Assembly (NCBI RefSeq): GCF_000341895.1
Contig: NC_020409.1
Span: 3,242,411 to 3,274,410 of the forward strand
DNA from: Pseudodesulfovibrio piezophilus C1TLV30
GTDB taxonomy: Bacteria; Desulfobacterota; Desulfovibrionia; Desulfovibrionales; Desulfovibrionaceae
Reading direction: 5' to 3'
DNA: 32,000 bases
The stretch's first letter is position 1; each line of letters begins with the position of its first letter. A program made the position numbers and the translations under genes. This document shows, piece by piece, positions 6,606 to 22,744 of this stretch. The notes under the pieces are model-generated. The model was not told where the DNA came from. It did not search any database and saw nothing but the letters and a program-made list of their open reading frames with translations.

Positions 6606-7343
6606 ATGACTAAGACGTTTTTGATAGATACCTCCCGTTGCACAGCGTGCCGCGGATGTCAGATAGCCTGCAAGGAATGGCACGAACTGCCAGCCAATAA
6701 AACCACCCAGTATCACTGGGGCAGTCATCAGAATCCGCCGGACCTGAATCCGTTCAACTATAAACTCGTCCGTTTCAGCGAGCACCTGGAAGATGGCGTG
6801 GTTCGGTGGAATTTCTTCCCCGAACAATGCCGCCACTGCGAGCTGGCTCCCTGCAAGGAGATGGGCGATCTGTATATTGAAGAGGCCATCACCCAGGACG
6901 AATCGACCGGGGCCGTCATCTTCACGGAAAAAACCAAGCAGTTCGACGATGAACAGTTTGAAGAAATTCGTGATGCATGTCCCTATAATGTCCCCAGACG
7001 TGATGAAAAAACCAAACTGATGGCCAAGTGCACCATGTGCAATGAAAGGCTTCAGCATGGTATGGTTCCGGCCTGTGTCAAGGTATGTCCGACCGGCACC
7101 ATGCAATTTGGTGAACGCGAGGATATGCTCAAACTGGCGGAAGAGCGCCTTGCCATAGTTAAGAAGAAATGGCCCAAGGCAATGTTGGCAGACCCGGATG
7201 ATGTCAATGTGATCTACCTGATCATCGATGACCCGGAGAACTACCATGAGTTCGTGGTCGCCGATGCCCGTCCGGTCGGTCCCATGTCAAAGAAGCAATT
7301 CCTGGCAACCCTGGCCAGACCCTTCAAAGCAATGAAGGCATAA
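6606..7343 (+). CDS. fdhB: Formate dehydrogenase iron-sulfur (4Fe-4S ferredoxin-type) beta subunit
   Basis: Multiple CxxCxxCxxxC(P) clusters are present (CTACRGCQIACKE, CRHCELAPC, CTMCNERL...CVKVCP). AAGGAG RBS; starts 17 nt after fdhA. Confidence 0.9.
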   Translation: MTKTFLIDTSRCTACRGCQIACKEWHELPANKTTQYHWGSHQNPPDLNPFNYKLVRFSEHLEDGVVRWNFFPEQCRHCELAPCKEMGDLYIEEAITQDESTGAVIFTEKTKQFDDEQFEEIRDACPYNVPRRDEKTKLMAKCTMCNERLQHGMVPACVKVCPTGTMQFGEREDMLKLAEERLAIVKKKWPKAMLADPDDVNVIYLIIDDPENYHEFVVADARPVGPMSKKQFLATLARPFKAMKA

Positions 7344-7416
7344 CACGATAAACGTCTCTCCCTCGGGGATCGGGCCGGAATGGTCGCGGTCCCCGCCGGA
7401 GGGATTGGAGCGCTTC

Positions 7417-8331
7417 ATGAAATCTGTATCTGCTCTCAAGGCTGTCGAATCGACATTGATGACCATCAACGGAAGAACTCCTGCATACGTGGAGTTGACT
7501 GAGCGTTTTGGTCCTGTGTTCATTTCCTCAGCCCGGCTGCGCGATGAATTGGTGGCGGAAGGCGTGGCCTCTCTAGAAATTGATCCTGTCCGGTTGGCGG
7601 CCGGGGTTCCGGTTCTCGTTGGTTCCGATTTTTCACAGTGGACTGATTTGTTGAGTTCCTCTGTCAAACGCCTTCTCCCCGAACTTCTTGAAGTGCTCGA
7701 ACTCGAAGACGATGCATGTGAAGCTCTTCGCGTCTTTTTCGATGATTCCGATACTCTCTTGGCGCTCGTTCAGGCTCGGACTGAAGGCGATTGGAAACAC
7801 TTTGAGAACACCTCCGTACAGTTGGAAACCGTATCAGCAACAACCTTGCTGTATATTTCAGAGATTGTTTTCTCTCCTGTCCTTTGTGCTATAGCCGAGA
7901 CTCTGGGCGAGCGCCTTGAATCCCATTCCTGGGAACATGGTCATTGCCCTGTTTGCGGCTCTTCTCCTTCCATCTCCCAGCTTTCGCCCAAGGAAATCAC
8001 CGATCTTGATCAATTGGTCGGTGGCGGAGGGAAAAAATATCTTCACTGTTCTCTTTGCGGTCATGACTGGCGCTACAAAAGGAATGCCTGTCCATCCTGC
8101 GGAAATGATGACAGTGAATCCCGTGAAGTTTTTTACGCGGATGACACCCGGTTTGAACGGGTGGAGGCGTGCCATAAATGCGGCACCTACTGTCTGAATG
8201 TTGATCTGCGTGAATGTGAACCTCTGCCGCATCTCGACGCCATTCAGATGGGGCTTATTCATCTCGATATCTATGCGCAAAAAAAGAAATTGACCCCTTT
8301 GGTTTCCACTCTGTGGAATTCCCTGGATTAG
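7417..8331 (+). CDS. fdhE: Formate dehydrogenase accessory protein FdhE
   Basis: Paired CxxC motifs are typical of FdhE (CPVCGSSP, CSLCGHDW, CPSCGN, CHKCGTYC). ATG 7417 (TGGAG 6 nt upstream) is preferred over the TTG at 7405 used in the track. Confidence 0.85.
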   Translation: MKSVSALKAVESTLMTINGRTPAYVELTERFGPVFISSARLRDELVAEGVASLEIDPVRLAAGVPVLVGSDFSQWTDLLSSSVKRLLPELLEVLELEDDACEALRVFFDDSDTLLALVQARTEGDWKHFENTSVQLETVSATTLLYISEIVFSPVLCAIAETLGERLESHSWEHGHCPVCGSSPSISQLSPKEITDLDQLVGGGGKKYLHCSLCGHDWRYKRNACPSCGNDDSESREVFYADDTRFERVEACHKCGTYCLNVDLRECEPLPHLDAIQMGLIHLDIYAQKKKLTPLVSTLWNSLD

Positions 8332-8334
8332 CTT

Positions 8335-9156
8335 ATGGAGACGGGAATGCAGACAACCCGGTTGCGGGATGCCGCGCGAAAAGCCGCGTCTCATGACGAG
8401 AAAACCCAGCCGCAGCCAGACGGAGTGCGGCTGGCCTGTCCCATGACCCTGCAATGTTACAAGGACGGCCAACTCTCATTCAGAGAGGATATGGTCGCTG
8501 TCGAGTCGGATATTCGGCTTCAAATCAATGGGCTGGATCATGCCGTGCTTACCAGAACTCCTGGTGATGATTTGACGCTTATTGCCGGATACCTCTTCTC
8601 CTGTTCCATGATCCGGGACGCCGAAGATCTTCTGGATGTCTCCTTTGGATATAGTGGCGCATCCAAGGCACGGGTCACTCTCAAGGCTCCGAGTGTGATC
8701 AGGCGGCTTTTCCCGTCACCTCGCCCTGTAGTCTTGGACCCGGAAAGGCTTTTTGATTTCAAGAAGACCTTTGAAAGGCGGCAGAATCTCTACAGGAATA
8801 CAGGGTCAACCCATGCGGCTGCCCTGTTCAGCATGGATGGAGAGTTGATCGCTTTCGGGGAGGATGTTGGGCGACACAATGCCTTTGACAAGGCTATTGG
8901 GCGCGCATTACTTGAGGGCTCGCTGGAGAGAGTTGGTATCGCGATGCTCTCCTCCCGGCTGGCCTTGGAGCTGACAATCAAAGCTTCCAATGCCAATATT
9001 CCTATTTTATGTGGGTTTTCTGCGGCGACCAGTTCGGGCATCAATTTTGCCGAGCGCAACAATATTACTTTGGTAGGGCGAATTCGCGAGGACTCTTTCA
9101 ATGTCTACGCCAATAGCTGGCGGCTCAAGGGCAGCAAAGGGCATCAGTCCGAATAA
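8335..9156 (+). CDS. fdhD: Formate dehydrogenase accessory sulfurtransferase FdhD
   Basis: Contains the FdhD signature GRHNAFDKAIG and the motif CGFSAATSSG. ATG 8347 is an alternative start with a better GGAG spacing. Confidence 0.85.
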   Translation: METGMQTTRLRDAARKAASHDEKTQPQPDGVRLACPMTLQCYKDGQLSFREDMVAVESDIRLQINGLDHAVLTRTPGDDLTLIAGYLFSCSMIRDAEDLLDVSFGYSGASKARVTLKAPSVIRRLFPSPRPVVLDPERLFDFKKTFERRQNLYRNTGSTHAAALFSMDGELIAFGEDVGRHNAFDKAIGRALLEGSLERVGIAMLSSRLALELTIKASNANIPILCGFSAATSSGINFAERNNITLVGRIREDSFNVYANSWRLKGSKGHQSE

Positions 9157-9279: not shown

Positions 9280-10374
9280 TCATGACGGTATGGCTTGCTG
9301 CCCAGGGGAAGGGACAGGGCGTGTCTGCTTTATTCGTCGTTTGAAATCCGCGATGCCAGGGGCGAAGAGGGTATGCATCAGCATGGCTCCCATAAGTGTT
9401 ATTATCAGCAGTACGCAACCGTTTGGTTCATCCTGGTAGGTCTCGAAAATGGCAATGACAATAAAATGAATCAGATAGAAAGGGTAGCTGATTTGCCCAA
9501 GTACTTTGTCCAGGCGCGAGCGTCGGAATGCACGAAAAATACATGGCATTGTGAAGAGGACCAGCATGGGGAGAAAAAAAGGTTCCAGGTACTCATCAAC
9601 ATCGTTGGCAACGCAGATAAGACCCACAAGGAGTAGGAAGGCGAACGAGTCAAGACCGCTTTGTCTGTCAGGCAGTGATTTGTGAACTCGATAGGCAAGG
9701 ATGCCTCCGCCGAAAAGCCAGAATTCGAGAGGGAAAAAACGGAGAAAGAATTTCATGCTTACAAAAGGAGACATCACAATCAGTATTTTGGCACATAGAC
9801 TGGCTGCGATCAAAAGCAGGAGGGTCTTCGTTTTGAATCTCACGAGGATTGGAACCATGGCATAGAAGATAACTTCCAGTGAGAGCGACCACGCTTGAAG
9901 GACAGGAGCTAGTCGCCAGAGAGCATGCCTGCTGTATTCGACAAAATGTATGCTCCCATCAGGGAGTCGGACCAGGCTGAAAAGGAGTTCCTGCCCCACA
10001 ATGAAGAGTGAAGTAAATGACACGAGCAGGAAGCCTGCTGGATCAGTCAGGAACTTTTTGAGTTCCTGAGCACAGTTCATCGGATGTACATCGAGACTGA
10101 CGATAAGAGCCACGCTGAGTGTCAAAGTGAAAAGGTACATGGGATAAAGTGCCATGAAGCGACTTGCATAAAACGAGCGCGTTGTTTCGTAGGACGTGTC
10201 GAGGATTAGCGCCATGTAAAAACCCGAGATAGCGAAAAAAGACAGTACAGCTTCATGACCATCCACTATCGGGAGATCGAAAGTAGGGAAATGAGAGTTG
10301 AAGACAGCTATGGCCAGGATTATTCGTATAATGCCCATGGAGTATCTCGTTGTCTGTCCCGCCAAAAGAAGCAT
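9280..10374 (-). CDS. Acyltransferase family 3 integral membrane protein (OafA/YrhL-like)
   Basis: Polytopic hydrophobic protein with an N-terminal IILAIAVFNSHF...FFAISGFYMALIL pattern typical of acyltransferase_3. The start is uncertain (11 codons downstream there is an alternative ATG at 10338). Confidence 0.7.
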   Translation of the reverse strand: MLLLAGQTTRYSMGIIRIILAIAVFNSHFPTFDLPIVDGHEAVLSFFAISGFYMALILDTSYETTRSFYASRFMALYPMYLFTLTLSVALIVSLDVHPMNCAQELKKFLTDPAGFLLVSFTSLFIVGQELLFSLVRLPDGSIHFVEYSRHALWRLAPVLQAWSLSLEVIFYAMVPILVRFKTKTLLLLIAASLCAKILIVMSPFVSMKFFLRFFPLEFWLFGGGILAYRVHKSLPDRQSGLDSFAFLLLVGLICVANDVDEYLEPFFLPMLVLFTMPCIFRAFRRSRLDKVLGQISYPFYLIHFIVIAIFETYQDEPNGCVLLIITLMGAMLMHTLFAPGIADFKRRIKQTRPVPSPGQQAIPS

Positions 10375-10442: not shown

Positions 10443-10484
10443 AAAAAGAGAATAGGCAGGCAGCAAGAAAGTTTTGCTGCCTGC
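10443..10484 (-). terminator. Stem-loop terminator downstream of the SET-domain gene
   Basis: An 11-bp perfect stem, GCAGGCAGCAA (10456-10466) / TTGCTGCCTGC (10474-10484), is followed on the minus strand by CTATTCTCTTTTTCA. Confidence 0.6.
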
Positions 10485-10551
10485 GAGTTATTCTTTCAAA
10501 TTATTTCTTAGCCATTAAAGCCCAAGGGCGAGCGCGGTACGGAGTCTGCGG

Positions 10552-11160
10552 TCATGTAGACTGTCGGTATCGGCTTTCGTTGGTATTGCAAGGCCAGAAC
10601 TGAGGTATAGGGTTCCTCGCCGCAGAGATATGCCCGTAATTTTTTTTCGTCTCACCTTCCATATACTTCATGAGGGGCTGGTGAACTGCTGTGACTTTGT
10701 TTAGGGCACTGATGATTTTGACATCCCAAACTTCGTGGTAGCGTTCCAGGTCATCCGGACGGAGAGCTTTTCGACAGTTGGGACAATTGCATTCCAGAGG
10801 GATGATCTCTTCCAGGTTGAAAAGACCATAATCGTCACATATCTCTTCACCTTCGTGGATATCCCTGAGAGCTATTTCAAATCCGTACCCGGTACTGATG
10901 GTATTGCAGTCACATTTATGATTGACGAATTTGGCATGATCCCAACTCAGGATGCGTATTCCTTTTTCATCAATATAGGAAAATTTGTCCGCGATGGTTT
11001 TATGGTCATCATCCAGCTCATTGAAATCTTTTTCCGAGAGCTCTATTTCGAGTTGATCTTTGACATAAACTATGGTGCCACGGGGGATGTCGGCAGTGGC
11101 AAAAACGCCGTAACCGATGGATGCATTGACAAATCGTACTTCTGTTTTCGGATGAATCAT
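10552..11160 (-). CDS. SET-domain protein lysine methyltransferase with post-SET Cys cluster
   Basis: GYGVFATADIPRGTIVY, FVNHKCDCN (the NHSC-type motif), EEICDDYG (the ELxxDY-type motif) and post-SET CNCPNC are present. The start is set at ATG 11160 (MIHPKTEV) because the 11280 start would overlap the upstream gene by 80 nt. Confidence 0.8.
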   Translation of the reverse strand: MIHPKTEVRFVNASIGYGVFATADIPRGTIVYVKDQLEIELSEKDFNELDDDHKTIADKFSYIDEKGIRILSWDHAKFVNHKCDCNTISTGYGFEIALRDIHEGEEICDDYGLFNLEEIIPLECNCPNCRKALRPDDLERYHEVWDVKIISALNKVTAVHQPLMKYMEGETKKNYGHISAARNPIPQFWPCNTNESRYRQST

Positions 11161-11200
11161 GGTGAAAATCTCTTCGTTTGGGTGGATGTATGAGAAGAGG

Positions 11201-11473
11201 CTACCAGTCGTCGTCGCTCTGGTAATCCATTTCGTCTTCAAGTTTGTAGTTGCGAATCTTGATGCGGTATTCATCTTCACTTTCCGTGATAATGCCCTGT
11301 GCGGTCACCCAGCGGTCTATGTGATCTATCAATTGTTCGCCATTCTCATTGTTTTCGACAAGAAATTCCTCTTCACCATCCACCAGAATGACGATTCCGG
11401 AGACGGCATCGTCGTCCCAGTCCAAAGGCAGGACTTGTCCATACAAAGAATCTTCATATATCTCCAAGGCCAT
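11201..11473 (-). CDS. Small acidic protein of unknown function (90 aa), paralog of 12467..12739
   Basis: A strong RBS (AAAGGAGGTAAATT-ATG) lies 17 nt after the GNAT stop. It shares the pattern G.V.P..WDD...V.G......GE.E..V.N...........GII with the other 90-aa ORF. Confidence 0.7.
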   Translation of the reverse strand: MALEIYEDSLYGQVLPLDWDDDAVSGIVILVDGEEEFLVENNENGEQLIDHIDRWVTAQGIITESEDEYRIKIRNYKLEDEMDYQSDDDW

Positions 11474-11490
11474 AATTTACCTCCTTTTTC

Positions 11491-12054
11491 TTACTGATAT
11501 TGCAGATCACTCTCTTGAGATTCAAGAATGAGGCGATAGACGATGCCCCCATCCGATGGGACAAAGTGTTTATGGAAACGATTTTCGAGTTGAAATTCAT
11601 TTGCCTCATAGAAAAGTCGGGCGTTTTCGTAGGCGCGAGATGCTCCGGTCTCCAGGAATATCCGCTTGCCGGTGCCTGCCGTTACCTGTCGCTTCATCTC
11701 GGAGATGAGGGCTGAACCGATCCCAAGGCGTTGAAATTCAGGGTCAACAGCAATCCCATATAGTTCATACGTCTCGGTCCAATGTGGAATACGGCCGTAG
11801 CAAATGAACCCCACCGTTTTTTCCGTGCCGGATTCGTTGACAGTCGCCTGAAGGAACGTGTGCGTTTCAGAACCATCTCCATATGCACTGTCCCAAGCCA
11901 TGTCTTCGGCAGACATCATGGCGTCGGATGAGAAAAGGCCACTTGCCGCCGCCATGTTCAAGATGTTTTCGACATCTGCGGGTGCGACACCGGAAATGAT
12001 GTGAATTTCACGAACGTCACATGGGCGGATTTCTTCATTGATGATCATGTCCAT
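11491..12054 (-). CDS. GNAT-family N-acetyltransferase
   Basis: Contains the acetyl-CoA-binding motif region LYGIAVDPEFQRLGIGSALISEMKRQV and a GNAT-type C-terminal beta strand. The ATG is 2 nt after the stop of the upstream ORF (GGAGCTAACAATG). Confidence 0.85.
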   Translation of the reverse strand: MDMIINEEIRPCDVREIHIISGVAPADVENILNMAAASGLFSSDAMMSAEDMAWDSAYGDGSETHTFLQATVNESGTEKTVGFICYGRIPHWTETYELYGIAVDPEFQRLGIGSALISEMKRQVTAGTGKRIFLETGASRAYENARLFYEANEFQLENRFHKHFVPSDGGIVYRLILESQESDLQYQ

Positions 12055-12056
12055 TG

Positions 12057-12464
12057 TTAGCTCCGAGTTGCTTCTACCGTCTGTTTGCAGGACGGTATGA
12101 AGGCAATGACCCTGTTGCTGAGAACCCTGTCTTTCATGATGGGCCGTTCATGAGGAAGGGAGCAGACGGCGCAGGCCCGGCATGGGAGCGTCGGGGGATT
12201 CCATGCCGTTCCCTTGAATACCGAGCCTGTGCTGTCGTGTAACAAAGCCCCGGAAACATTCCGGGTGCCCTGAAAAGAGTGCGAGAATTGTCTGTTTATA
12301 AACTCAGCAGATGCGTGCATCTGCGAGGGATTGAGTACTTTGAACCGTTGACCAGGAGTGTGCATCTGGGCGCAGTGCGATCTGCGGTGCTCAAACACCA
12401 GATGAAGACAGAGCACCAGGAACAAAGTCGCACAGGGACAAAAATAATCTGGGAAGAATGACAT
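12057..12464 (-). CDS. Hypothetical Cys/His-rich protein (135 aa) with one N-terminal hydrophobic helix
   Basis: The ORF exactly fills the gap between two supported genes. Its ATG is 2 nt after the upstream stop, with AAAGGAG inside the upstream gene's end, and its stop is 2 nt before the GNAT ATG. A CRACAVC motif is present. There is no recognisable family, it uses several rare codons (AGA, AGG, ATA), and the region is dense in hairpins, so coding status is not certain. Confidence 0.45.
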   Translation of the reverse strand: MSFFPDYFCPCATLFLVLCLHLVFEHRRSHCAQMHTPGQRFKVLNPSQMHASAEFINRQFSHSFQGTRNVSGALLHDSTGSVFKGTAWNPPTLPCRACAVCSLPHERPIMKDRVLSNRVIAFIPSCKQTVEATRS

Positions 12465-12466
12465 GT

Positions 12467-12739
12467 TTAGTCTTCTCCTTTTTCAAGGAGTGTGAAACTT
12501 TCAAGTTGAATAGTTTCCAATAGCCCGGATTTTTTTATTATCCCCGTGAAGATGGCTTCTGATTGCGCCAAGGATTTCAGTGCAGGAAAACTTGTCAAAT
12601 TCACAATTCGAACTTCTCGTTCACCAGGGCATGCCACATGGACTCCGGTCACCTTGAAGTGATCATCCCACTGTTCCGGGACTATCACTCCACGGATAAC
12701 TCCCTTGTGACTTTGTTTGGTGCTTGTTGAGTGTGCCAT
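12467..12739 (-). CDS. Small protein of unknown function (90 aa), paralog of 11201..11473; first gene of the cassette
   Basis: It is the first ORF downstream of the -24/-12 promoter and shares the WDD / GE.E / GII pattern with the second 90-aa ORF. Confidence 0.65.
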   Translation of the reverse strand: MAHSTSTKQSHKGVIRGVIVPEQWDDHFKVTGVHVACPGEREVRIVNLTSFPALKSLAQSEAIFTGIIKKSGLLETIQLESFTLLEKGED

Positions 12740-12774: not shown

Positions 12775-12791
12775 AAGCAGAGGCTGTGCCA
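12775..12791 (-). promoter_or_regulatory. Sigma-54 (-24/-12) promoter TGGCAC-AGCCT-CTGCTT
   Basis: The minus strand reads TGGCACAGCCTCTGCTT with exact GG-N10-GC spacing. The GC lies 38 nt upstream of ATG 12739. A sigma-54 activator gene is directly upstream. Confidence 0.8.
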
Positions 12792-12844
12792 ACATAGATT
12801 TGCTTGAAATGTATGGATTATTTTAGAAACAAAAGCACAAAACA

Positions 12845-12859
12845 AGAACTCTCAGTTCT
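12845..12859. promoter_or_regulatory. Candidate enhancer (UAS) site 1: palindrome AGAACT-CTC-AGTTCT
   Basis: Perfect 6-3-6 inverted repeat ~60 bp upstream of the -24 element. The same motif recurs at 12972 and 13003. Confidence 0.55.
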
Positions 12860-12971: not shown

Positions 12972-12986
12972 GGAATTCTGAGTTCC
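12972..12986. promoter_or_regulatory. Candidate UAS site 2: GGAATT-CTG-AGTTCC
   Basis: Matches the GAAyTCTsAGTTC motif (5 of 6 bp in the inverted repeat), ~190 bp upstream of the promoter. Confidence 0.5.
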
Positions 12987-13002: not shown

Positions 13003-13017
13003 AGACTTCTCAGTTCT
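13003..13017. promoter_or_regulatory. Candidate UAS site 3: AGACTT-CTC-AGTTCT
   Basis: Third copy of the TTCTCAGTTCT core. Its centre is 31 bp from site 2, and it overlaps the stop codon of the activator gene. Confidence 0.45.
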
Positions 13018-14407
13018 TGTTTTTGAAATCAGCCCGATAAAGAGAATGCCGATTCATGAGTTTATTTAACTGCCGAGTTGTCACTCCTGCCCTCTGTGCG
13101 GCGTCTTTCATGATGCCATTACATTGTTCCAGCAGGCTTGTGAGATATTGTTTTTCGAATTTATCCACAGTAATCTGTCTCGCCATTTTGAGCGGAAGGT
13201 CTGTTTTGACGGGTGAGGTGACCACTTCGCCTTGGGTATCAAGAAGGTCGGGAGGGAAGCTTTCGGGATGGAGGATTTCACCTGTTTCGAGAATACAGGC
13301 CCGTTCGATGACATTTTCCAACTCTCGGACATTGCCCGGCCAGTCATACTCCAAGAGAGTGTCGAGTACATGGGGATGCATCCCCTTCAATTCCGTGTTG
13401 AGTTGCCCATTGAATTGCCTGATAAAATATTCTGAAAGTCTTGGGATATCTTCTCGGCGTTCCCGCAAAGACGGGATACGGATTGGGAAAACATTCAGTC
13501 TGTAAAAGAGGTCACGGCGAAATTTGCCATCTTCACAAAGTTTTCCCATGTCTTCGTTGGTCGCAGCGATAATGCGGACATCCACGGGAATATCATGCTC
13601 GCCACCGACACGCTGAATCCGCCTTTCCTGGATGACATTGAGCAGTTTAACTTGCACAGATTGGCTGACAGTTCCTATCTCATCAAGAAAAATGGTGCCG
13701 CCTTGAGCCAGTTCAAATTTTCCGAGTTTGCGGCGAACGGCCCCGGTAAAGGCACCTTTTTCGTGGCCGAAAAGCTCACTTTCAACGAGTGTGTCCGGGA
13801 TTGCCCCGCAGTGAATGCTGATGAATGGTTTCTCTTTACGATTGCTATGGGCGTGAAGGAGTTTGGCTATAAGGCTTTTCCCTGTGCCTGTTTCTCCTGT
13901 GAGAAGAACAGTGGTCCGGGTGCCTGCCACCTGTCTGATTTTGACAAAGACAGCGCGCATGGCTTTGCTGTTGGTATCCACATAATCGAGGAAATCTTCA
14001 TTCCAAAATTGATCTCGCAAATAATCCAGTTCTGATTGGAGGACATCGGATTCCCGGACTTTTTTAACAACCAGTCCCAGTTCCTCTTTCTCTATGGGGT
14101 GCGTCAGGTAATCAAACGCCCCGGCGTTGACTGCGTCCACGGCAAATCCGGTTTGCTCTTCATCTGCCATGACTACAATGGCTGCCGACGGGTAGTGCGT
14201 CCAGAAGCTTTCAAGCGCCTTGTTGATGGATTTATTCGACTCAAGCAGGGACTCCACATCGACGAATACTGTATCGACTTCCCTATCCGGGGGCTGCTCT
14301 CCGGATTCAGTTGCTGTTTCCGTGTGGATTTTTGTATCCTGAAAGAGCAGGCTGCCAATTTCTTCGGAACGATTTCCATCGCGCGTGATGACAAGCATTT
14401 TTCTCAT
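13010..14407 (-). CDS. Sigma-54-dependent transcriptional activator (bEBP) with atypical receiver-like N domain, AAA+ domain and Fis-type HTH
   Basis: [15 protein letters not shown] (Walker A), [15 protein letters not shown] (GAFTGA loop), and a C-terminal HTH ([18 protein letters not shown]). In the N domain the acidic pair is replaced (VITRDG) and the conserved Lys is replaced by His (YLTHP). AGGAGG RBS. Confidence 0.9.
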
Positions 14408-16347: not shown

Positions 16348-18147
16348 TTAATAAAACATCATCAGCGCTGTGATCATGACTACCATGTAAATGACCGTCA
16401 TACCAGCGCCACTGCGGACGTAGTCAATGGTCCGGTACCCTCCTGGGCGCATGATCAATGCGTTGACCTGGTGAGTGGGCAGTACAAACGTATTCGAAGC
16501 TGCCACAGCGACCGTCAGGGCCGCTACACGAGGATCAACACCTGCGTTGAGAGCCATGTTCATTGACAGTGGAACCAGCAGGACGGTGGCACCGACATTG
16601 GAAGCCACCAAAGTGAAGAAGGATGTCAGGATACCGATGACTGTGAGCAGGACGACTGCGGATGGTGTGCCAAGTGCAGCCATGATGGTGTCGGCTATAT
16701 ACTTTGCCGCGCCGGTATTCTCAAAGGCCATACCCAGAGGAATGAGTCCTCCAAGCAGGAAAACAGTCATCCAGTCAACTGACTGGTAAGCTTCATCAAT
16801 GGTCAGGACTTTTGTCAGAACCATACCCAAGGCTCCTGTGAGGAGTGCGATGGAGAGCTGAACATGGAAGCCCAGAATCATGACAAGGGAAACAGCCAGC
16901 CACATCAAGGCTACTTTTGCCTTATCCGTTCGTAACAGTTCCCCTTTGACGCCTTCGGTAAAGACGAGGTCGGGCAAGCCTTTGAGCATGTGAAAGACTT
17001 CCCAACGTCCATGCAGGAGCAGGGCGTCACCCGACTCAAGTATGATATCACTCAGCCCACTGATAAAAATCTTGTCTCCACGGAAAATAGCCAATGGCGA
17101 AACCTGGAAACGTTCCCTGATGCGCATATCGGCAAATGTGGTTCCCATGAATTCGGACCGAGGGGTGACAAGACCTTCCATGATACCCGCATTGTTCGGA
17201 GACAATTCCTCGGCAAAGGTGGAGAGTTCAACTTGCAATGTCCAGTTCAGGTCATCAGCCATGTGTTCGACAAATTCCTGCGGACCAACGACAACGAGGT
17301 GGTCGCCGGGGCGAACCTCTTCCTGTGGTGTCGGGGCAAAGATGTGCGTCTTGCCTCCGTCTCGGGCAATGGCGACCAATGTGCAGAAATAGATGGGGCG
17401 AAGATCCAGGGATTTCAATGACTGATCTGATTCCCAGTCCTCCGGCACATGCAGCTCGAAAAGAGAGCCGACATTATTGTAGGTGTTAGAAAGAACGGTC
17501 GACATGGGGCCGGAGTTCTCTTCATCAGCCCTGGTAGGCAAAATGAATCTGCCGAAAAGGATGAAGTAGACAAGGGCCGCTGCTATCAGCAACAGCCCAA
17601 CGGGGGTGACGCTGAATAGCCCGAATGATTCATATTTGGTGCCACCTACAACCATCAGGTCATTGAGAAGAATCAAAGGGCTGGAACCGACAAGGGTCAA
17701 ACAGCCTCCGATGATGGCGCAGAAACCCATGGGCATGAGCAGGCGACCCACGGGGACTCCTGTCTGGTTGCCGATCCGTTTTGCAGCGGGCAAAAAGAGT
17801 GCTGCTGCGCCAATATTCTGCATGAAGCCGGATATGAAAGCCACGGTTCCTGATATGAGAGTCATAATGCGCGATTCGCTTTTTCCGGCGAAGCGCAAAA
17901 TTATTCGGGCCATGGAATTCATGACGCCAGTCTTGTCCAGACCGGCGCCAATGATGATAACTGCTATGATGGAAACAACGGCATTACTGCTCAGTCCGCT
18001 GATGGCTTGTTGAGGGGTTACCAGGCCAAGAAGAGGAAGAAGTACCATCATGATGATACCGACTACGTCGACTCGAACCCATTCGAAGATGAAAAGAAGT
18101 ACAGCAAAAGCGAGTACGGCCATAACCGTAATGATCTCAGGGGTCAT
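16348..18147 (-). CDS. SLC13/DASS-family anion permease with two central TrkA-C (RCK_C) domains
   Basis: Two hydrophobic halves flank two soluble repeats of ~70 aa (…RPGDHLVVVGPQEFVEHM and …ESGDALLLHGRWEVFHML), typical of TrkA-C inserts in YbiR/CitT-like permeases. Confidence 0.8.
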   Translation of the reverse strand: MTPEIITVMAVLAFAVLLFIFEWVRVDVVGIIMMVLLPLLGLVTPQQAISGLSSNAVVSIIAVIIIGAGLDKTGVMNSMARIILRFAGKSESRIMTLISGTVAFISGFMQNIGAAALFLPAAKRIGNQTGVPVGRLLMPMGFCAIIGGCLTLVGSSPLILLNDLMVVGGTKYESFGLFSVTPVGLLLIAAALVYFILFGRFILPTRADEENSGPMSTVLSNTYNNVGSLFELHVPEDWESDQSLKSLDLRPIYFCTLVAIARDGGKTHIFAPTPQEEVRPGDHLVVVGPQEFVEHMADDLNWTLQVELSTFAEELSPNNAGIMEGLVTPRSEFMGTTFADMRIRERFQVSPLAIFRGDKIFISGLSDIILESGDALLLHGRWEVFHMLKGLPDLVFTEGVKGELLRTDKAKVALMWLAVSLVMILGFHVQLSIALLTGALGMVLTKVLTIDEAYQSVDWMTVFLLGGLIPLGMAFENTGAAKYIADTIMAALGTPSAVVLLTVIGILTSFFTLVASNVGATVLLVPLSMNMALNAGVDPRVAALTVAVAASNTFVLPTHQVNALIMRPGGYRTIDYVRSGAGMTVIYMVVMITALMMFY

Positions 18148-19359: not shown

Positions 19360-21435
19360 ATGAGTTGGTTTGGAATAGGGAAAAAAACAGTGCCCGAAAC
19401 GGTGACTCCTGAATCGGTTGCAACACCGACACCTCCCCCCTCTTTCCCGGTTTCGTCACACCATAGGGAACTCCGTGACAGAATCGAATCAGCGGGATTG
19501 CCAGACGAGATTCTCGACGCTGCCCGATCCGAATTTGAACGTGCTGACAGCATTGATCCCTCTTCGCCGGAATATGCCATCGGTTTGAATTATCTTGATT
19601 TTATTCTTTCCCTCCCCTGGAAAGAACGGACCAAGGATGATCTCGATATTCATCGGGCTGATGAAGTCCTGAATGCACGGCATTTTGGGTTACGGCAAGT
19701 CAAGGATCGGATTTTGGAATTTCTCGCGGTAAAAAACCTTCGAGGCCGCTATTCCCCACGTATTCTGCTGGTTGATGACGAAGCCATCGCACGGGAAAAT
19801 CTGTCAATCGTCTTTGAAATGGACGGGTTTGATGTTGTTGCCGTTGGCAACGGTCTTGAGGCAGTGGCTGCCATGGAAGAGGAGCCTGCCGATGTCGTGG
19901 TATCTGATTTGAAAATGGACGGCATGGATGGGATGGAACTCTTGCAGGTCCTCAGGCAACGGTGGCCTGATACCAAAGTTGTCATGTTGACAGGGTATGC
20001 AACAGTCAAGTCGGCTGTCGAAGCCATGCAACAAGGGGCGGATCAGTACCTTGGCAAACCTGTCAATCTGACAAAACTTCGAAAATATGTGGCCGATCTG
20101 TATGAACAGAGTCTTCGTGTCGAACACTTGCGCGGTCCTGTGCTGTGTTTCTCCGGGCCTCCCGGAATGGGCAAGACCTCCATTGGGAAGGGGATAGCCG
20201 AAGCTCTGGGGAGAAAGTTCATTCGACTTTCTCTTGCTGGGTTGCATGATGAAGCTGAATTGCGCGGTCATCGGCGGACCTATGTGGGGGCCATGCCCGG
20301 TCGTATCTTGCAGGGAATTCAGAAAGCCGGGTCCATGAACCCCGTTATCATGCTGGATGAGGTGGATAAGGCGGTTCAGAATTTTCAGGGCGATGCCACG
20401 TCTGTCTTATTGGAGATGCTTGATCCCGAACAGAACAATGCCTTTGTGGATCATTATCTTGGTCTTCCCTTTGATCTTTCGGGAGCCTTGTTTCTTTGCA
20501 CGGCAAATGCCGTTGAGAGGCTTCCTGCCCCGCTTCTGGATCGGCTTGAGGTCATCCATTTCCCAAGTTACACTCGGCAGGAAAAACTCCATATAGCCAC
20601 ACAGCATTTGGTACCCGAGCAACTGCGGATGCATGGTCTGGATGAGCGCTTGGTATCCTTGACCCCGGAAGCTGTTGCCCAAATCATACGGGAATACACA
20701 CGCGAGGCCGGACTGCGTGGCTTACGGATGCAGGTGGCGTCGCTGTGCCGAAAACTGGCCAAGGAAGTTCTGGCGGATGGGGACGGGCCAAGAGTTGTGG
20801 GGCCGGAAAGAGTGCTTTTTCTTTTGGGACCACCTCCCTTTGCAACGACGGAAGCACAGGGGGCTCCGAAGGTCGGCTTGGCGACAAGTCTGGTCTGGAC
20901 TGAAAATGGTGGTGAGATCATTTTTGTGGAAGCCGCACGAATGCGTGGCAACAAGCACCTTCTGCTTACGGGATCTTTGGGAGAAGTCCTGCGGGAATCC
21001 GCGCATACCGCCTTGAGCTATATCCGCAGCCATGCGGACGAGTTTAGCATAGCGCAGGATTTCTTTGAGAGCAGCGACATTCATGTCCATATTCCCGCCG
21101 GTGCCATTTCCAAGGAAGGCCCATCGGCCGGTGTTTCCATTGCTCTGGCGTTGTTGTCTTTGCTGACAGGGCGACCTGTGCGCCAGGATGTGGCCCTGAC
21201 AGGCGAGTTGTCACTTCTTGGCGACGTTTTGCCGGTCGGTGGAGTTCGGGAAAAGCTGATGGCCGCTCAACAGGCGGGAATCGCAATGGTCATTTTGCCC
21301 AAGGGGTGTGAACGACGTTTGGAGACTATTGAGGAAGAAGTGCTGCATGAGCTTGACATTCGCCTTGTCTCAACGATGGACGAAGCTGCGGCGTTAGCTC
21401 TGTGCGATCCTCCTAGGTCAAATGATATTTCTTAA
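19360..21435 (+). CDS. Lon-family ATP-dependent protease lacking the N-terminal LON domain and carrying an inserted CheY-like receiver (REC) domain
   Basis: Lon helical segment (LPWKERT...HFGLRQVKDRILEFLAV). REC (RILLVDDE...VVVSDLKMDGMDG...VVMLTGY...YLGKP) at about nt 19759-20103. AAA+ (GPPGMGKT, VIMLDEVDK). Lon_C with catalytic Ser (KEGPSAGVS) and Lys (GGVREKLMAA). GGGAGG lies 9 nt upstream of ATG 19360; the track start at 19303 has no RBS. Confidence 0.9.
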   Translation: MSWFGIGKKTVPETVTPESVATPTPPPSFPVSSHHRELRDRIESAGLPDEILDAARSEFERADSIDPSSPEYAIGLNYLDFILSLPWKERTKDDLDIHRADEVLNARHFGLRQVKDRILEFLAVKNLRGRYSPRILLVDDEAIARENLSIVFEMDGFDVVAVGNGLEAVAAMEEEPADVVVSDLKMDGMDGMELLQVLRQRWPDTKVVMLTGYATVKSAVEAMQQGADQYLGKPVNLTKLRKYVADLYEQSLRVEHLRGPVLCFSGPPGMGKTSIGKGIAEALGRKFIRLSLAGLHDEAELRGHRRTYVGAMPGRILQGIQKAGSMNPVIMLDEVDKAVQNFQGDATSVLLEMLDPEQNNAFVDHYLGLPFDLSGALFLCTANAVERLPAPLLDRLEVIHFPSYTRQEKLHIATQHLVPEQLRMHGLDERLVSLTPEAVAQIIREYTREAGLRGLRMQVASLCRKLAKEVLADGDGPRVVGPERVLFLLGPPPFATTEAQGAPKVGLATSLVWTENGGEIIFVEAARMRGNKHLLLTGSLGEVLRESAHTALSYIRSHADEFSIAQDFFESSDIHVHIPAGAISKEGPSAGVSIALALLSLLTGRPVRQDVALTGELSLLGDVLPVGGVREKLMAAQQAGIAMVILPKGCERRLETIEEEVLHELDIRLVSTMDEAAALALCDPPRSNDIS

Positions 21436-22744
21436 TTTTTCGCCACAGGGAAACCCTGTCTATGCCAAGGATTCGTGCTGCTTGTGTCTTGTTCCCACTT
21501 GAGGCGGTCAGGACTTTTCTGATGTGTGCCTTTTCCACGTCTTCCAGTGAAGGGAGAGGGGCTTCGGCTGGCATGTTCCCTACTTCAACGGGAAGCAGGT
21601 CCGGGGTGAAGGATGGTCCCTGTCCCAGAGCCAGTGCTCGCTGGACGATATTTTCCAGCTCACGCGCATTGCCGGGAAACGGGTATCGCATCAGGATGTC
21701 CAGTGTATCTTGCGAGATGGAGTTGATGGTCTGTTCCGCGTGGCGGTGCTTTTCCAAAAAATGTCCCATAAGAATCGGAATGTCCTCGCGGTGCTCCCGT
21801 AAGGGAGGAGCCTGGACAGTAACCACATTGAGTCGATAGTAGAGATCCTGCCTGAATTCTCCCTGCTTGACCAACTCGCGCAAGTCACAGTTTGTCGCCG
21901 CAACGACTCGGATGTCCACGGGTATTTCCCGCGTGCCGCCGACTCGCAGGAAGGTTCGCTCTTGAAGTACCCGCAGGAGCTTGACCTGCATGTTCAGCGG
22001 CAGTTCTCCTATTTCATCAAAGAAGACCGTGCCGCCGTCAGCGACTTCCAGGATACCTTTTTGCCCCCGGTTAGCCCCTGTGAACGCTTCCTTTTCATGG
22101 CCGAATAATTCCTTGTCCATCAGTTCCGCGGTGAAGGTCCCGCAGTTGATAGCCATGAAACGTTCCTCTGAGCGTTGGCTGAGTTGGTGGATGCCTTGGG
22201 CGACCAGTTCCTTGCCTGTCCCGGTTTCTCCCTGGATCAGTACGTTGCAGTTCATCTGGGCCAACTGCTTTACAGTATTCTTGAGTTGAGTGAAGACATC
22301 ACTTTGTCCGACAAGGGGGAAATCACTCTTGCCCTGTGCGATGATCTTTCGAAGTCTGAGGACCTCTACGGACAGGGCATGTTGTTCCAATGCCCGCTCG
22401 ACTTGAAGACGAAGTTCATCGAGTTTCAGTGGCTTGGCGATATACGAATGGGCACCCTTCTGCATTGCCTTGACAGCATTGGCCACAGTCGCATGTCCCG
22501 TGACAACGATGACCATGGTCGAAGGGTGTTGGGCACGGGTGTGCTCCAACATTTGAATACCATCCATGCCGGGAAGCATCAGGTCGGTGATGACGAGGTC
22601 GTATTCCCGTTTTTCCAATTGTCGCAGGCCCTCTTCGGCAGAGACCAGTGCGGTGACTGTATGTCCCGCATTGGTCAGGACATGAGTCAGGTTTTCGCGT
22701 GCGATCTGTTCGTCTTCGACGACCAGAATGGATGCAGCTGTCAT
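21413..22744 (-). CDS. Sigma-54-dependent response regulator (NtrC/AtoC family: REC-AAA+-Fis HTH)
   Basis: Canonical REC (ILVVEDE, LVITDLMLPGMDG, VVTGH, YIAKP), GETGTGKELVA, GHEKEAFTGA, and C-terminal QAARILGIDRVSLWRKI. Its ATG overlaps the kinase stop (ATGA). Confidence 0.92.
   Translation of the reverse strand: MTAASILVVEDEQIARENLTHVLTNAGHTVTALVSAEEGLRQLEKREYDLVITDLMLPGMDGIQMLEHTRAQHPSTMVIVVTGHATVANAVKAMQKGAHSYIAKPLKLDELRLQVERALEQHALSVEVLRLRKIIAQGKSDFPLVGQSDVFTQLKNTVKQLAQMNCNVLIQGETGTGKELVAQGIHQLSQRSEERFMAINCGTFTAELMDKELFGHEKEAFTGANRGQKGILEVADGGTVFFDEIGELPLNMQVKLLRVLQERTFLRVGGTREIPVDIRVVAATNCDLRELVKQGEFRQDLYYRLNVVTVQAPPLREHREDIPILMGHFLEKHRHAEQTINSISQDTLDILMRYPFPGNARELENIVQRALALGQGPSFTPDLLPVEVGNMPAEAPLPSLEDVEKAHIRKVLTASSGNKTQAARILGIDRVSLWRKIKKYHLT

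Follow-up and report, generated by a model that had tools for sequence, protein, structure and literature searches.

We analyzed a 32-kb window (the whole stretch of DNA under study) from Pseudodesulfovibrio (formerly Desulfovibrio) piezophilus, a deep-sea sulfate reducer, focusing on a minus-strand gene cluster that carries a SET-domain methyltransferase gene behind a predicted sigma-54 promoter. An initial annotation had read the SET gene and a nearby GNAT acetyltransferase gene as a methyl writer and an acetyl writer under one sigma-54 switch, acting on an endogenous target. The cluster runs from a sigma-54 activator through a 270-nt intergenic region to a small protein (A), a 412-nt spacer, the GNAT, a second small protein (B), the SET gene, a hairpin and an Acyl_transf_3 gene. 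The SET, GNAT and small protein B sequences show 100% identity to proteins from this species. The features of the cluster, in gene order, are as follows.

13010..14407, minus strand: sigma-54 enhancer-binding protein (activator), 465 aa; Pfam Sigma54_activat 3.5e-69, AAA_lid_14 3.2e-27, HTH_8 1.5e-4
12972..12986, minus strand: distal palindrome GGAACtcagaATTCC, putative activator-binding site (upstream activating sequence, UAS); RGAAY-N5-RTTCY conserved in 8 Pseudodesulfovibrio loci
12845..12859, minus strand: proximal palindrome AGAACtgagaGTTCT, putative second activator-binding site; RGAAY-N5-RTTCY conserved in the same 8 loci
12776..12791, minus strand: predicted sigma-54 -24/-12 promoter TGGCACagcctCTGCT, ~50 nt upstream of small protein A; 1 mismatch to TGGCAC-N5-TTGCW
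12467..12739, minus strand: small protein A, 90 aa, isoelectric point (pI) 6.4, predicted OB fold; uncharacterised family, orthologues in all Pseudodesulfovibrio loci
12055..12466, minus strand: spacer, 412 nt, with a non-conserved 135-aa open reading frame (ORF) and a weak hairpin at 12249-12265
11491..12054, minus strand: GNAT N-acetyltransferase, 187 aa; Pfam Acetyltransf_1 1e-11, Acetyltransf_7 2e-11
11201..11473, minus strand: small protein B, 90 aa, pI 4.05, predicted OB fold; strong AGGAGG ribosome-binding site, acidic tail ending DDDW
10508..11160, minus strand: predicted SET-domain methyltransferase; the frame as annotated stops at 10552 (202 aa), and one added A gives 217 aa ending at 10508
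10456..10484, minus strand: hairpin after the SET gene, from a terminator scan; G+C-rich stem of 13 bp (plus strand) or 11 bp (minus strand)
9280..10374, minus strand: Acyl_transf_3 membrane acyltransferase; Pfam Acyl_transf_3 5.5e-20

The product of the SET gene, already annotated as SET-domain-containing, matches Pfam SET (PF00856) over all 105 model positions (52.8 bits against a cutoff of 22.4, E 5.8e-14). The four signatures singled out in the initial annotation (GYGVFA, FVNHKCDCN, EEICDDYG and the post-SET cluster CNCPNC) are all present in the minus-strand translation of this gene. Its start is the ATG at 11160 (MIHPKTEV...) rather than the GTG at 11280: all homologues begin with MIHP, and an ORF starting at the GTG would run into the gene before it. 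Alignments of 20 and 30 sequences spanning several phyla (Desulfobacterota, Gammaproteobacteria, Nitrospinota and others) show ten invariant residues: G16, G18, N80, H81, C83, C85, Y111, C124, C126 and C129. Among these, G16/G18, N80/H81/C83 and Y111 align with the corresponding residues of MLL3, namely the GxG motif that binds S-adenosylmethionine (SAM), NHxC and the catalytic Tyr. The post-SET cysteines C124, C126 and C129 are spaced CxCx2C (canonical CxCx4C), a pattern that, together with the invariant C83 and C85, is compatible with the predicted Zn site despite its non-canonical spacing. Further family traits are the invariant I2, H3 and P4 after a near-invariant Met1, and a well-modelled helical C-terminal extension of ~80 residues.

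Structural comparison led to the same class. A family profile of 30 members matched ASH1L (3e-9) and MLL3/KMT2C (3e-8) in the PDB. AlphaFold2 was used to model the intact homologue P0014 from P. sediminis (predicted local distance difference test (pLDDT) 78.5), and the model matched 155 PDB chains in Foldseek at E <= 1e-3, of which the top 50 listed were all SET domains. The best match was MLL3 (E 2.4e-7, target-normalised template modelling (TM) score 0.54), and matches to MLL3, MLL1, ASH1L, NSD2 and SETD2 ranged from E 2e-7 to 1e-5 with probability 1.0. With the eukaryotic SET/post-SET lysine methyltransferases (MLL/KMT2, ASH1L, SETD2 and NSD) the bacterial family thus shares the fold, GxG, NHxC, the catalytic Tyr of (E)ExxxDY and the Cys cluster. 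It differs from them in being single-domain, in starting at the SET core with IHP and in having no reader or partner domains, as well as in its CxCx2C spacing, an extra invariant Cys (NHxCxC) and the C-terminal helical domain, and identity to these enzymes is only 20-27%. Taken together, the motifs and the modelled fold show the protein to be a bona fide SET enzyme, probably an active one. It carries no signal peptide, the N-terminus MIHPKTEV leading straight into the SET core, and it scores 11.4 bits against a cutoff of 550 with the NCBIfam T4SS_AnkI/LegAS4 model; the earlier statement that a secretion signal is absent therefore stands.

The annotated 202-aa SET product departs from all homologues after ...GETKKN. 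The point of the frame switch is a run of eight A (A8) at 10640-10647 of the minus-strand gene, beyond which the other frame reads KKLRAYLCGEEPYTSVLALQY...GFNG* (with LRAYLCGEEPYTSVLALQY as part of this C-terminus), the conserved C-terminus of every homologue. Compared with seven orthologous DNA sequences, the window is short by exactly one base at the A-run, and one added A gives the family-typical 217 aa, with a stop at 10508, 24 nt before the hairpin. Position 10552, initially taken as the end of the gene, thus reflects the frameshift, and an intact gene would end at 10508. The missing base could stem from an error in sequencing or be a true lesion, or the run could be a site of slippage; slippage on the A-run, transcriptional or ribosomal, could restore some full-length product.

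Upstream, the aligned loci point to sigma-54 control. The element TGGCAC-N5-(C/A)TGCT lies 49-54 nt upstream of the small protein A start in 8/8 orthologous loci, and RGAAY-N5-RTTCY palindromes are conserved in the aligned activator/small protein A intergenic regions of eight Pseudodesulfovibrio loci. Across the 32 kb this pattern occurs twice, both times in that intergenic region, and the two palindromes are probably activator-binding sites. The activator gene is adjacent in all loci, with orthologues of 69-83% identity at the same position in L001, L003-L005 and L086. With the activator next to it and both the -24/-12 promoter and the two palindromes conserved, sigma-54 control of the operon is well supported in silico. 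The sigma-54 switch postulated in the initial annotation is borne out by a promoter and an activator that both lie upstream of the segment on which it was based and are conserved in all eight related loci. The literature yielded no work that deals with this operon, with a SET gene controlled by sigma-54 or with expression in D. piezophilus. Immediately upstream of the -24 element, at 12802-12810, there is a conserved ATTTCA motif.

The activator has three parts: an N-terminus resembling a degenerate receiver, an AAA+ sigma-54 interaction domain, and a helix-turn-helix of the Fis type. Its match to Response_reg (3.3e-3) falls below the Pfam cutoff. In direct comparison with NtrC, the N-terminal 140 aa keep the acceptor Asp (FVD) and are without the conserved Thr, the conserved Lys and one acidic-pocket residue. 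The domain may act as a pseudo-receiver that does not depend on phosphorylation and is possibly governed by a partner protein, small protein A being one candidate. No kinase gene is adjacent to the activator. Elsewhere in the window lie a second sigma-54 activator paralogue (21413-22744, minus strand; 38% identity to the operon activator over 433 aa) and a near-consensus -24/-12 match (16587-16602, plus strand).

The SET family (~215 aa) comprises more than 1,400 proteins and is present in 250 of ~185,000 species genomes, spread over at least seven phyla. Its hosts are free-living sediment and marine bacteria, among them many marine Bacteroidota, and identity across phyla is 50-75%. The earlier remark that bacterial SET proteins are uncommon agrees with this count for the family, although free-living bacterial SET proteins had already been documented (PMC3980110). 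We surveyed 80 SET loci with their flanks, from 80 species, using tblastn and all-against-all ORF clustering within 5 kb, and neither approach found a conserved SET neighbour across these loci. A short-chain dehydrogenase/reductase (SDR) cluster was rejected as a neighbour, being a superfamily-level grouping at 28-34% identity. GNATs resembling that of the window (2r7h-like) occurred near SET in 5/80 loci, all Pseudodesulfovibrio. Small OB proteins occurred in 6/80, namely the same five and a Desulfobacteraceae metagenome-assembled genome (MAG; L023) that links an activator orthologue, two small OB proteins, a DksA/TraR protein and SET. An unrelated GNAT lies directly upstream of SET in three loci (L010, L012 and L078) from two gammaproteobacterial MAGs; phmmer detected no relation between it and the window GNAT even at E 10. 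An adjacent GNAT is missing in 72 of the 80 loci.

Co-occurrence of SET and GNAT, which the initial annotation had proposed to look for beyond this genome, was found in at least seven other Pseudodesulfovibrio genomes or contigs, where the order activator, small protein A, GNAT, small protein B, SET is kept; the pairing is, however, confined to this one genus. There, on the evidence of gene content, SET is an exchangeable module, because P. profundus (L092) holds a RimB-like gene (PF05618) and RimK (6963-8344) in the SET slot of an otherwise intact operon. SET without these genes is found in the window, L001-L003, L086 and L093 (P. indicus), and SET followed by RimB-RimK in L004 (8647-10031) and L005 (8656-10032). 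The operons of P. profundus and P. indicus run on into an ATP-binding cassette (ABC) importer with PotA/PotD-like domains. The SET protein of D. ferrophilus is 70% identical, with no GNAT or activator nearby. In that species (L099, 4947-5501), a gene for an HU-family protein of 184 aa whose helical C-terminal extension is rich in Lys, a candidate nucleoid substrate, lies 500 nt upstream of SET; as a general SET target the HU-like neighbour was rejected, having been found in D. ferrophilus alone.

More distant homologues occur in still other settings. Plasmids of Priestia megaterium (L101 and L102; ~100-140 kb) carry stand-alone SET homologues with 36-40% identity that includes the C-terminal extension, and one of these adjoins an IS3 transposase. 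In a gammaproteobacterial MAG (L009; 996-3307 and 5253-6388), two tandem SET paralogues are followed by a class I methyltransferase, with RimB-RimK-AstE 2.5 kb away; this RimK is 72% identical to that of Pseudodesulfovibrio, which suggests acquisition by horizontal transfer. Across the survey, RimK was near SET in 3/80 loci, an AstE/AspA-type deacylase lay within 4 kb in 8/80 loci from at least three lineages (L068-L070, L075 and L077 among them), and a P4H-like 2-oxoglutarate (2OG)-Fe(II) oxygenase stood directly beside SET in 4/80 (L025, L065, L069 and L075; Thiotrichales and Lewinellaceae). LysR regulators flank SET in five gammaproteobacterial loci.

The small proteins A and B are paralogous (24% identity, E 1e-5), and the profile of their family gathers ~660 representative clusters. 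Neither has a Pfam match or a solved relative. Among 50 family members scanned against Pfam, six families each weakly matched one member and none recurred. The AlphaFold2 model of small protein B (pLDDT 89.5) is a five-stranded barrel with one helix, and Foldseek gave weak but consistent matches to Stn1/Ten1, RPA, the LysRS N-domain, PriB and SSB (E 4e-3 to 6e-2, TM ~0.5). The acidic tail ending in DDDW is conserved among small B orthologues. In small protein A, and in most orthologues of small protein B, the residue after the initial Met is a small one: Ala, Ser or Thr. No lysine is invariant in the orthologue alignments of either protein, which is a weak argument against A or B as an obligate SET substrate and, to that extent, speaks against the proposal of the co-encoded small proteins as targets.

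We looked up the contexts of eight distant A/B homologues, of which two were on contigs too short and six were informative. In three of these six (L081/L082, L084/L085 and L087), all outside the genus, the small-protein gene directly follows a sigma-54 activator with a -24/-12-like element upstream; the other three are without an adjacent activator. The accompanying genes differ from context to context: a SAM decarboxylase, an ATP-grasp protein and Acetyltransf_6 in L081; an M48 peptidase and a mechanosensitive channel in L085; lysine 2,3-aminomutase, two Ddl-like ATP-grasp ligases and a GNAT in L087; and, with no adjacent activator, CapB/C together with SAM and arginine decarboxylases in L098. 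In L096 the small-protein genes adjoin divergently transcribed GroES/EL genes.

The GNAT of the window matches Acetyltransf_1 at 45.6 bits (cutoff 20.7) and contains the acetyl-CoA motif QRLGIG (pattern Q/RxxGxG/A). Both fold assignments of the initial annotation, SET and GNAT, pass profile and fold comparison. The best solved relative of the GNAT is PDB 2r7h (2.3e-15), an uncharacterised Desulfovibrio GNAT with no demonstrated function, and its best curated match is the rimI model (TIGR01575), at 40.7 bits and hence below the cutoff of 86.4. It shares the GNAT fold and the acetyl-CoA motif with RimI-type and 2r7h-type enzymes. Orthologues of this subfamily were found only in Pseudodesulfovibrio and Desulfovibrionaceae.

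From the GNAT onward the genes are closely spaced, with gaps of 17 nt between GNAT and small protein B and 40 nt between small protein B and SET. These gaps and the hairpin after SET favour the shared operon proposed for GNAT and SET; the two genes are, however, not adjacent, being separated by the 90-aa small protein B gene (11201-11473), and the 412-nt spacer lies upstream. The 135-aa ORF in that spacer has no homologue in related loci and no family match. It was rejected as a gene on these grounds and as unlike the secreted protein of relatives: at the same position L004, L092 and L093 carry a gene for a signal-peptide-bearing secreted protein of 116-125 aa, to which nothing in the window corresponds. 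The spacer gave no Rfam match, and its hairpin (12249-12265) is without a good T-tract. Behind the SET gene, the minus-strand T-tract of the hairpin at 10456-10484 is poor (CTATTCTCTT); this hairpin is a probable terminator, possibly leaky. The Acyl_transf_3 gene lies downstream of SET or RimK in L001, L002, L003, L005, L086, L092 and L093, and this conserved downstream neighbour possibly belongs to the operon through read-through.

Known prokaryotic systems offer several points of comparison. The prokaryotic SET proteins reviewed to date include NUE/cpnSET of Chlamydia, RomA/LegAS4 of Legionella, BaSET of Bacillus anthracis and Go1-SET of Methanosarcina; the characterised bacterial ones are mostly secreted effectors (PMC3980110). 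NUE, LegAS4, BaSET and Go1-SET are likewise small SET enzymes, and some methylate endogenous histone-like proteins. The family described here forms a distinct and much more conserved clade from free-living hosts and carries no secretion signal, a comparison made by description only for the members other than LegAS4. BurB, a bacterial SET-domain methionine S-methyltransferase acting on a free amino acid (PMC12542666; PDB 9l4t), is of similar size (180 aa), works inside the producer cell and shows that SET enzymes can take small molecules. Its similarity to the window protein is marginal and partial (E 0.053 over 55 residues, 79-133), it was not found in the profile search at E <= 0.01, and the window locus is without burI/D/E-like genes. 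A further point of reference is RimK, which polyglutamylates ribosomal protein S6 and is regulated by RimB (PMC4741518, PMC11957791), both being part of the RimABK system of adaptive ribosome modification (PMC4741518, PMC7343187, PMC11957791). In orthologous operons, the SET slot is taken by RimB-like and RimK genes or followed by them. The window itself has neither RimB nor RimK, RimA was not seen, and in place of c-di-GMP the locus has sigma-54 and its activator. Finding RimB-RimK in the SET slot suggests a shared theme of conditional post-translational modification, from which we infer a possible link between SET and a ribosomal protein.

We tentatively favour, at a little under an even chance, a stress-inducible, modular modification cassette in which SET acts alone on a conserved endogenous target encoded elsewhere. 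The activator, bound at the two palindromes, would open the sigma-54 promoter of a conditionally expressed operon, so that the small OB proteins would come first and, after them, the modification enzymes present in the given lineage. The front end, activator and small OB-fold proteins, would be the conserved part, and the back end would be exchangeable: GNAT, SET and/or the RimB-RimK ribosome-glutamylation pair, and then the membrane acyltransferase. SET would be a SAM-dependent N-methyltransferase that works by itself and is no obligate partner of the GNAT. Strong conservation, a sporadic distribution across phyla and the lack of conserved partners argue for such an autonomous enzyme with its substrate elsewhere; the identity across phyla and the invariant IHP (residues 2-4) argue for a substrate that is itself conserved. 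A protein lysine is favoured because the nearest relatives are peptide-lysine methyltransferases. An abundant translation or nucleoid protein would be the most plausible carrier of that lysine, because the SET slot is shared with RimB-RimK and RimB-RimK-AstE lies near the tandem SET genes of L009. That rimI, although below its cutoff, is the best curated match of the GNAT fits this theme of protein modification. Several points weigh against this account. In BurB a SET enzyme is already known whose substrate is a free amino acid (PMC12542666). The matches to eukaryotic histone methyltransferases may partly reflect the composition of the PDB. The 412-nt spacer and its weak hairpin weaken the case that GNAT and SET are co-transcribed with small protein A. 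The C-terminus of SET is frameshifted in this genome sequence, and the enzyme may be impaired here. Finally, the neighbourhood signals (RimK, deacylase and oxygenase) are sparse and could equally indicate small-molecule metabolism.

The frameshift gives weight to a reading in which SET in P. piezophilus is a decaying or phase-variable pseudogene: a real A8 lesion would remove the C-terminal helices, and the operon would work without SET, as in its congener P. profundus, where SET is dispensable. A run one base shorter than in seven orthologues, and a conserved C-terminus that can still be read in the other frame, are what such a lesion would leave, and the lost segment holds the nearly invariant Y185, S187, V188 and L191 in a confidently modelled helix. 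Yet the lesion is single, with no other stops, and the downstream frame is perfectly kept as far as the family-typical ...GFNG stop; this would agree with an error in sequencing the homopolymer, or else with a change of very recent date. No sequencing platform is named in the genome paper. We consider loss of SET here a minority possibility, though one to be taken seriously. Small-molecule chemistry is an alternative that we regard as unlikely. In it, a free amine such as lysine, beta-lysine, a polyamine or a similar solute would be N-methylated by SET and N-acetylated by GNAT, and the cassette would serve to produce or alter compatible solutes or polycations when the cell meets osmotic, ionic or pressure stress. 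This alternative draws on the polyamine, beta-lysine and poly-glutamate cargo of the sister cassettes that carry OB proteins (L081, L087 and L098) and the mechanosensitive channel of L085, on the PotA/PotD-like importer of P. profundus and P. indicus, on the LysR regulators and N-acyl-amino-acid deacylases near SET, and on the marine origin of many named SET hosts. Enzymatic precedents are BurB (PMC12542666) and Rubisco LSMT, which methylates free lysine according to a citation in PMC8085414. The similarity to BurB is marginal, however, and the enzymes closest in sequence and fold are methyltransferases of peptide lysine that have a post-SET cluster; SET has no conserved biosynthetic gene next to it, and the cargo evidence concerns the OB-protein module rather than SET. 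A more far-reaching version, in which the activator and a small acidic OB protein would form an undescribed, widespread regulatory head for interchangeable stress cassettes and SET, instead of being a protein methyltransferase, would N-methylate a free amine (of the lysine, beta-lysine or polyamine type) to build or adjust a compatible solute or polycation in marine and deep-sea bacteria, seems to us rather less than likely, a long shot. If true, SET as a free-amine N-methyltransferase would extend the BurB precedent to N-methylation.

The initial annotation itself amounts to a dedicated dual writer, with SET and GNAT modifying one endogenous target in common, for which the 90-aa proteins or a nucleoid protein are possible candidates. 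The tight order of GNAT, small protein B and SET, conserved in at least seven further Pseudodesulfovibrio genomes or contigs, agrees with it, as do the unrelated GNATs directly upstream of SET in the two gammaproteobacterial MAGs, the combination of activator orthologue, two small OB proteins and SET in L023, the HU-like protein beside the D. ferrophilus SET, and the Met plus Ala/Ser/Thr starts of the small proteins, which are typical of N-terminal acetylation substrates. Yet the GNAT subfamily is restricted to one genus and SET spans many phyla; SET is missing from the otherwise intact P. profundus operon, the D. ferrophilus SET has no GNAT, and most SET loci have no adjacent GNAT at all. The gammaproteobacterial GNAT is not detectably related, small proteins A and B have no invariant lysine, and the HU adjacency is seen in one species. 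A dedicated pair is accordingly improbable in our judgement. A host-targeting SET effector, a GNAT toxin-antitoxin pair or a phage-defence module is barely credible for this locus. GNAT toxins pair with ~90-aa antitoxins, a size that the small proteins share; these are predicted OB folds, however, not RHH/DUF1778 proteins, and PADLOC returned no match for SET, GNAT or the small proteins. The effector role common among characterised bacterial SET proteins (PMC3980110) does not sit well with the missing signal peptide, the LegAS4 score and the free-living sediment and marine hosts, and the locus is syntenic, sigma-54-driven and not mobile. These readings were rejected on the LegAS4 score and the PADLOC result.

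At the domain level the protein is an uncharacterised member of the known SET class, with no new mechanism demonstrated. Three things appear new from the sequence comparisons: a SET subfamily, defined here, that is compact, highly conserved and marked by a predicted C-terminal domain of its own; the position of its gene, in one genus, behind a predicted sigma-54 switch, where SET and RimBK naturally replace each other; and a predicted OB-fold small-protein family linked to sigma-54 activators. With ~660 clusters and no Pfam assignment, the last of these is an unrecognised module worth describing. Endogenous roles of bacterial SET enzymes are almost unknown, the characterised ones being mainly secreted effectors. 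The Pseudodesulfovibrio variants that naturally carry SET only, RimBK only or both, together with the predicted inducing switch, could be put to genetic use. A compact, conserved SET family across at least seven phyla, with cultivable hosts (marine Bacteroidota and Pseudodesulfovibrio) and members on Priestia plasmids, would offer a tractable route to a native bacterial SET substrate.

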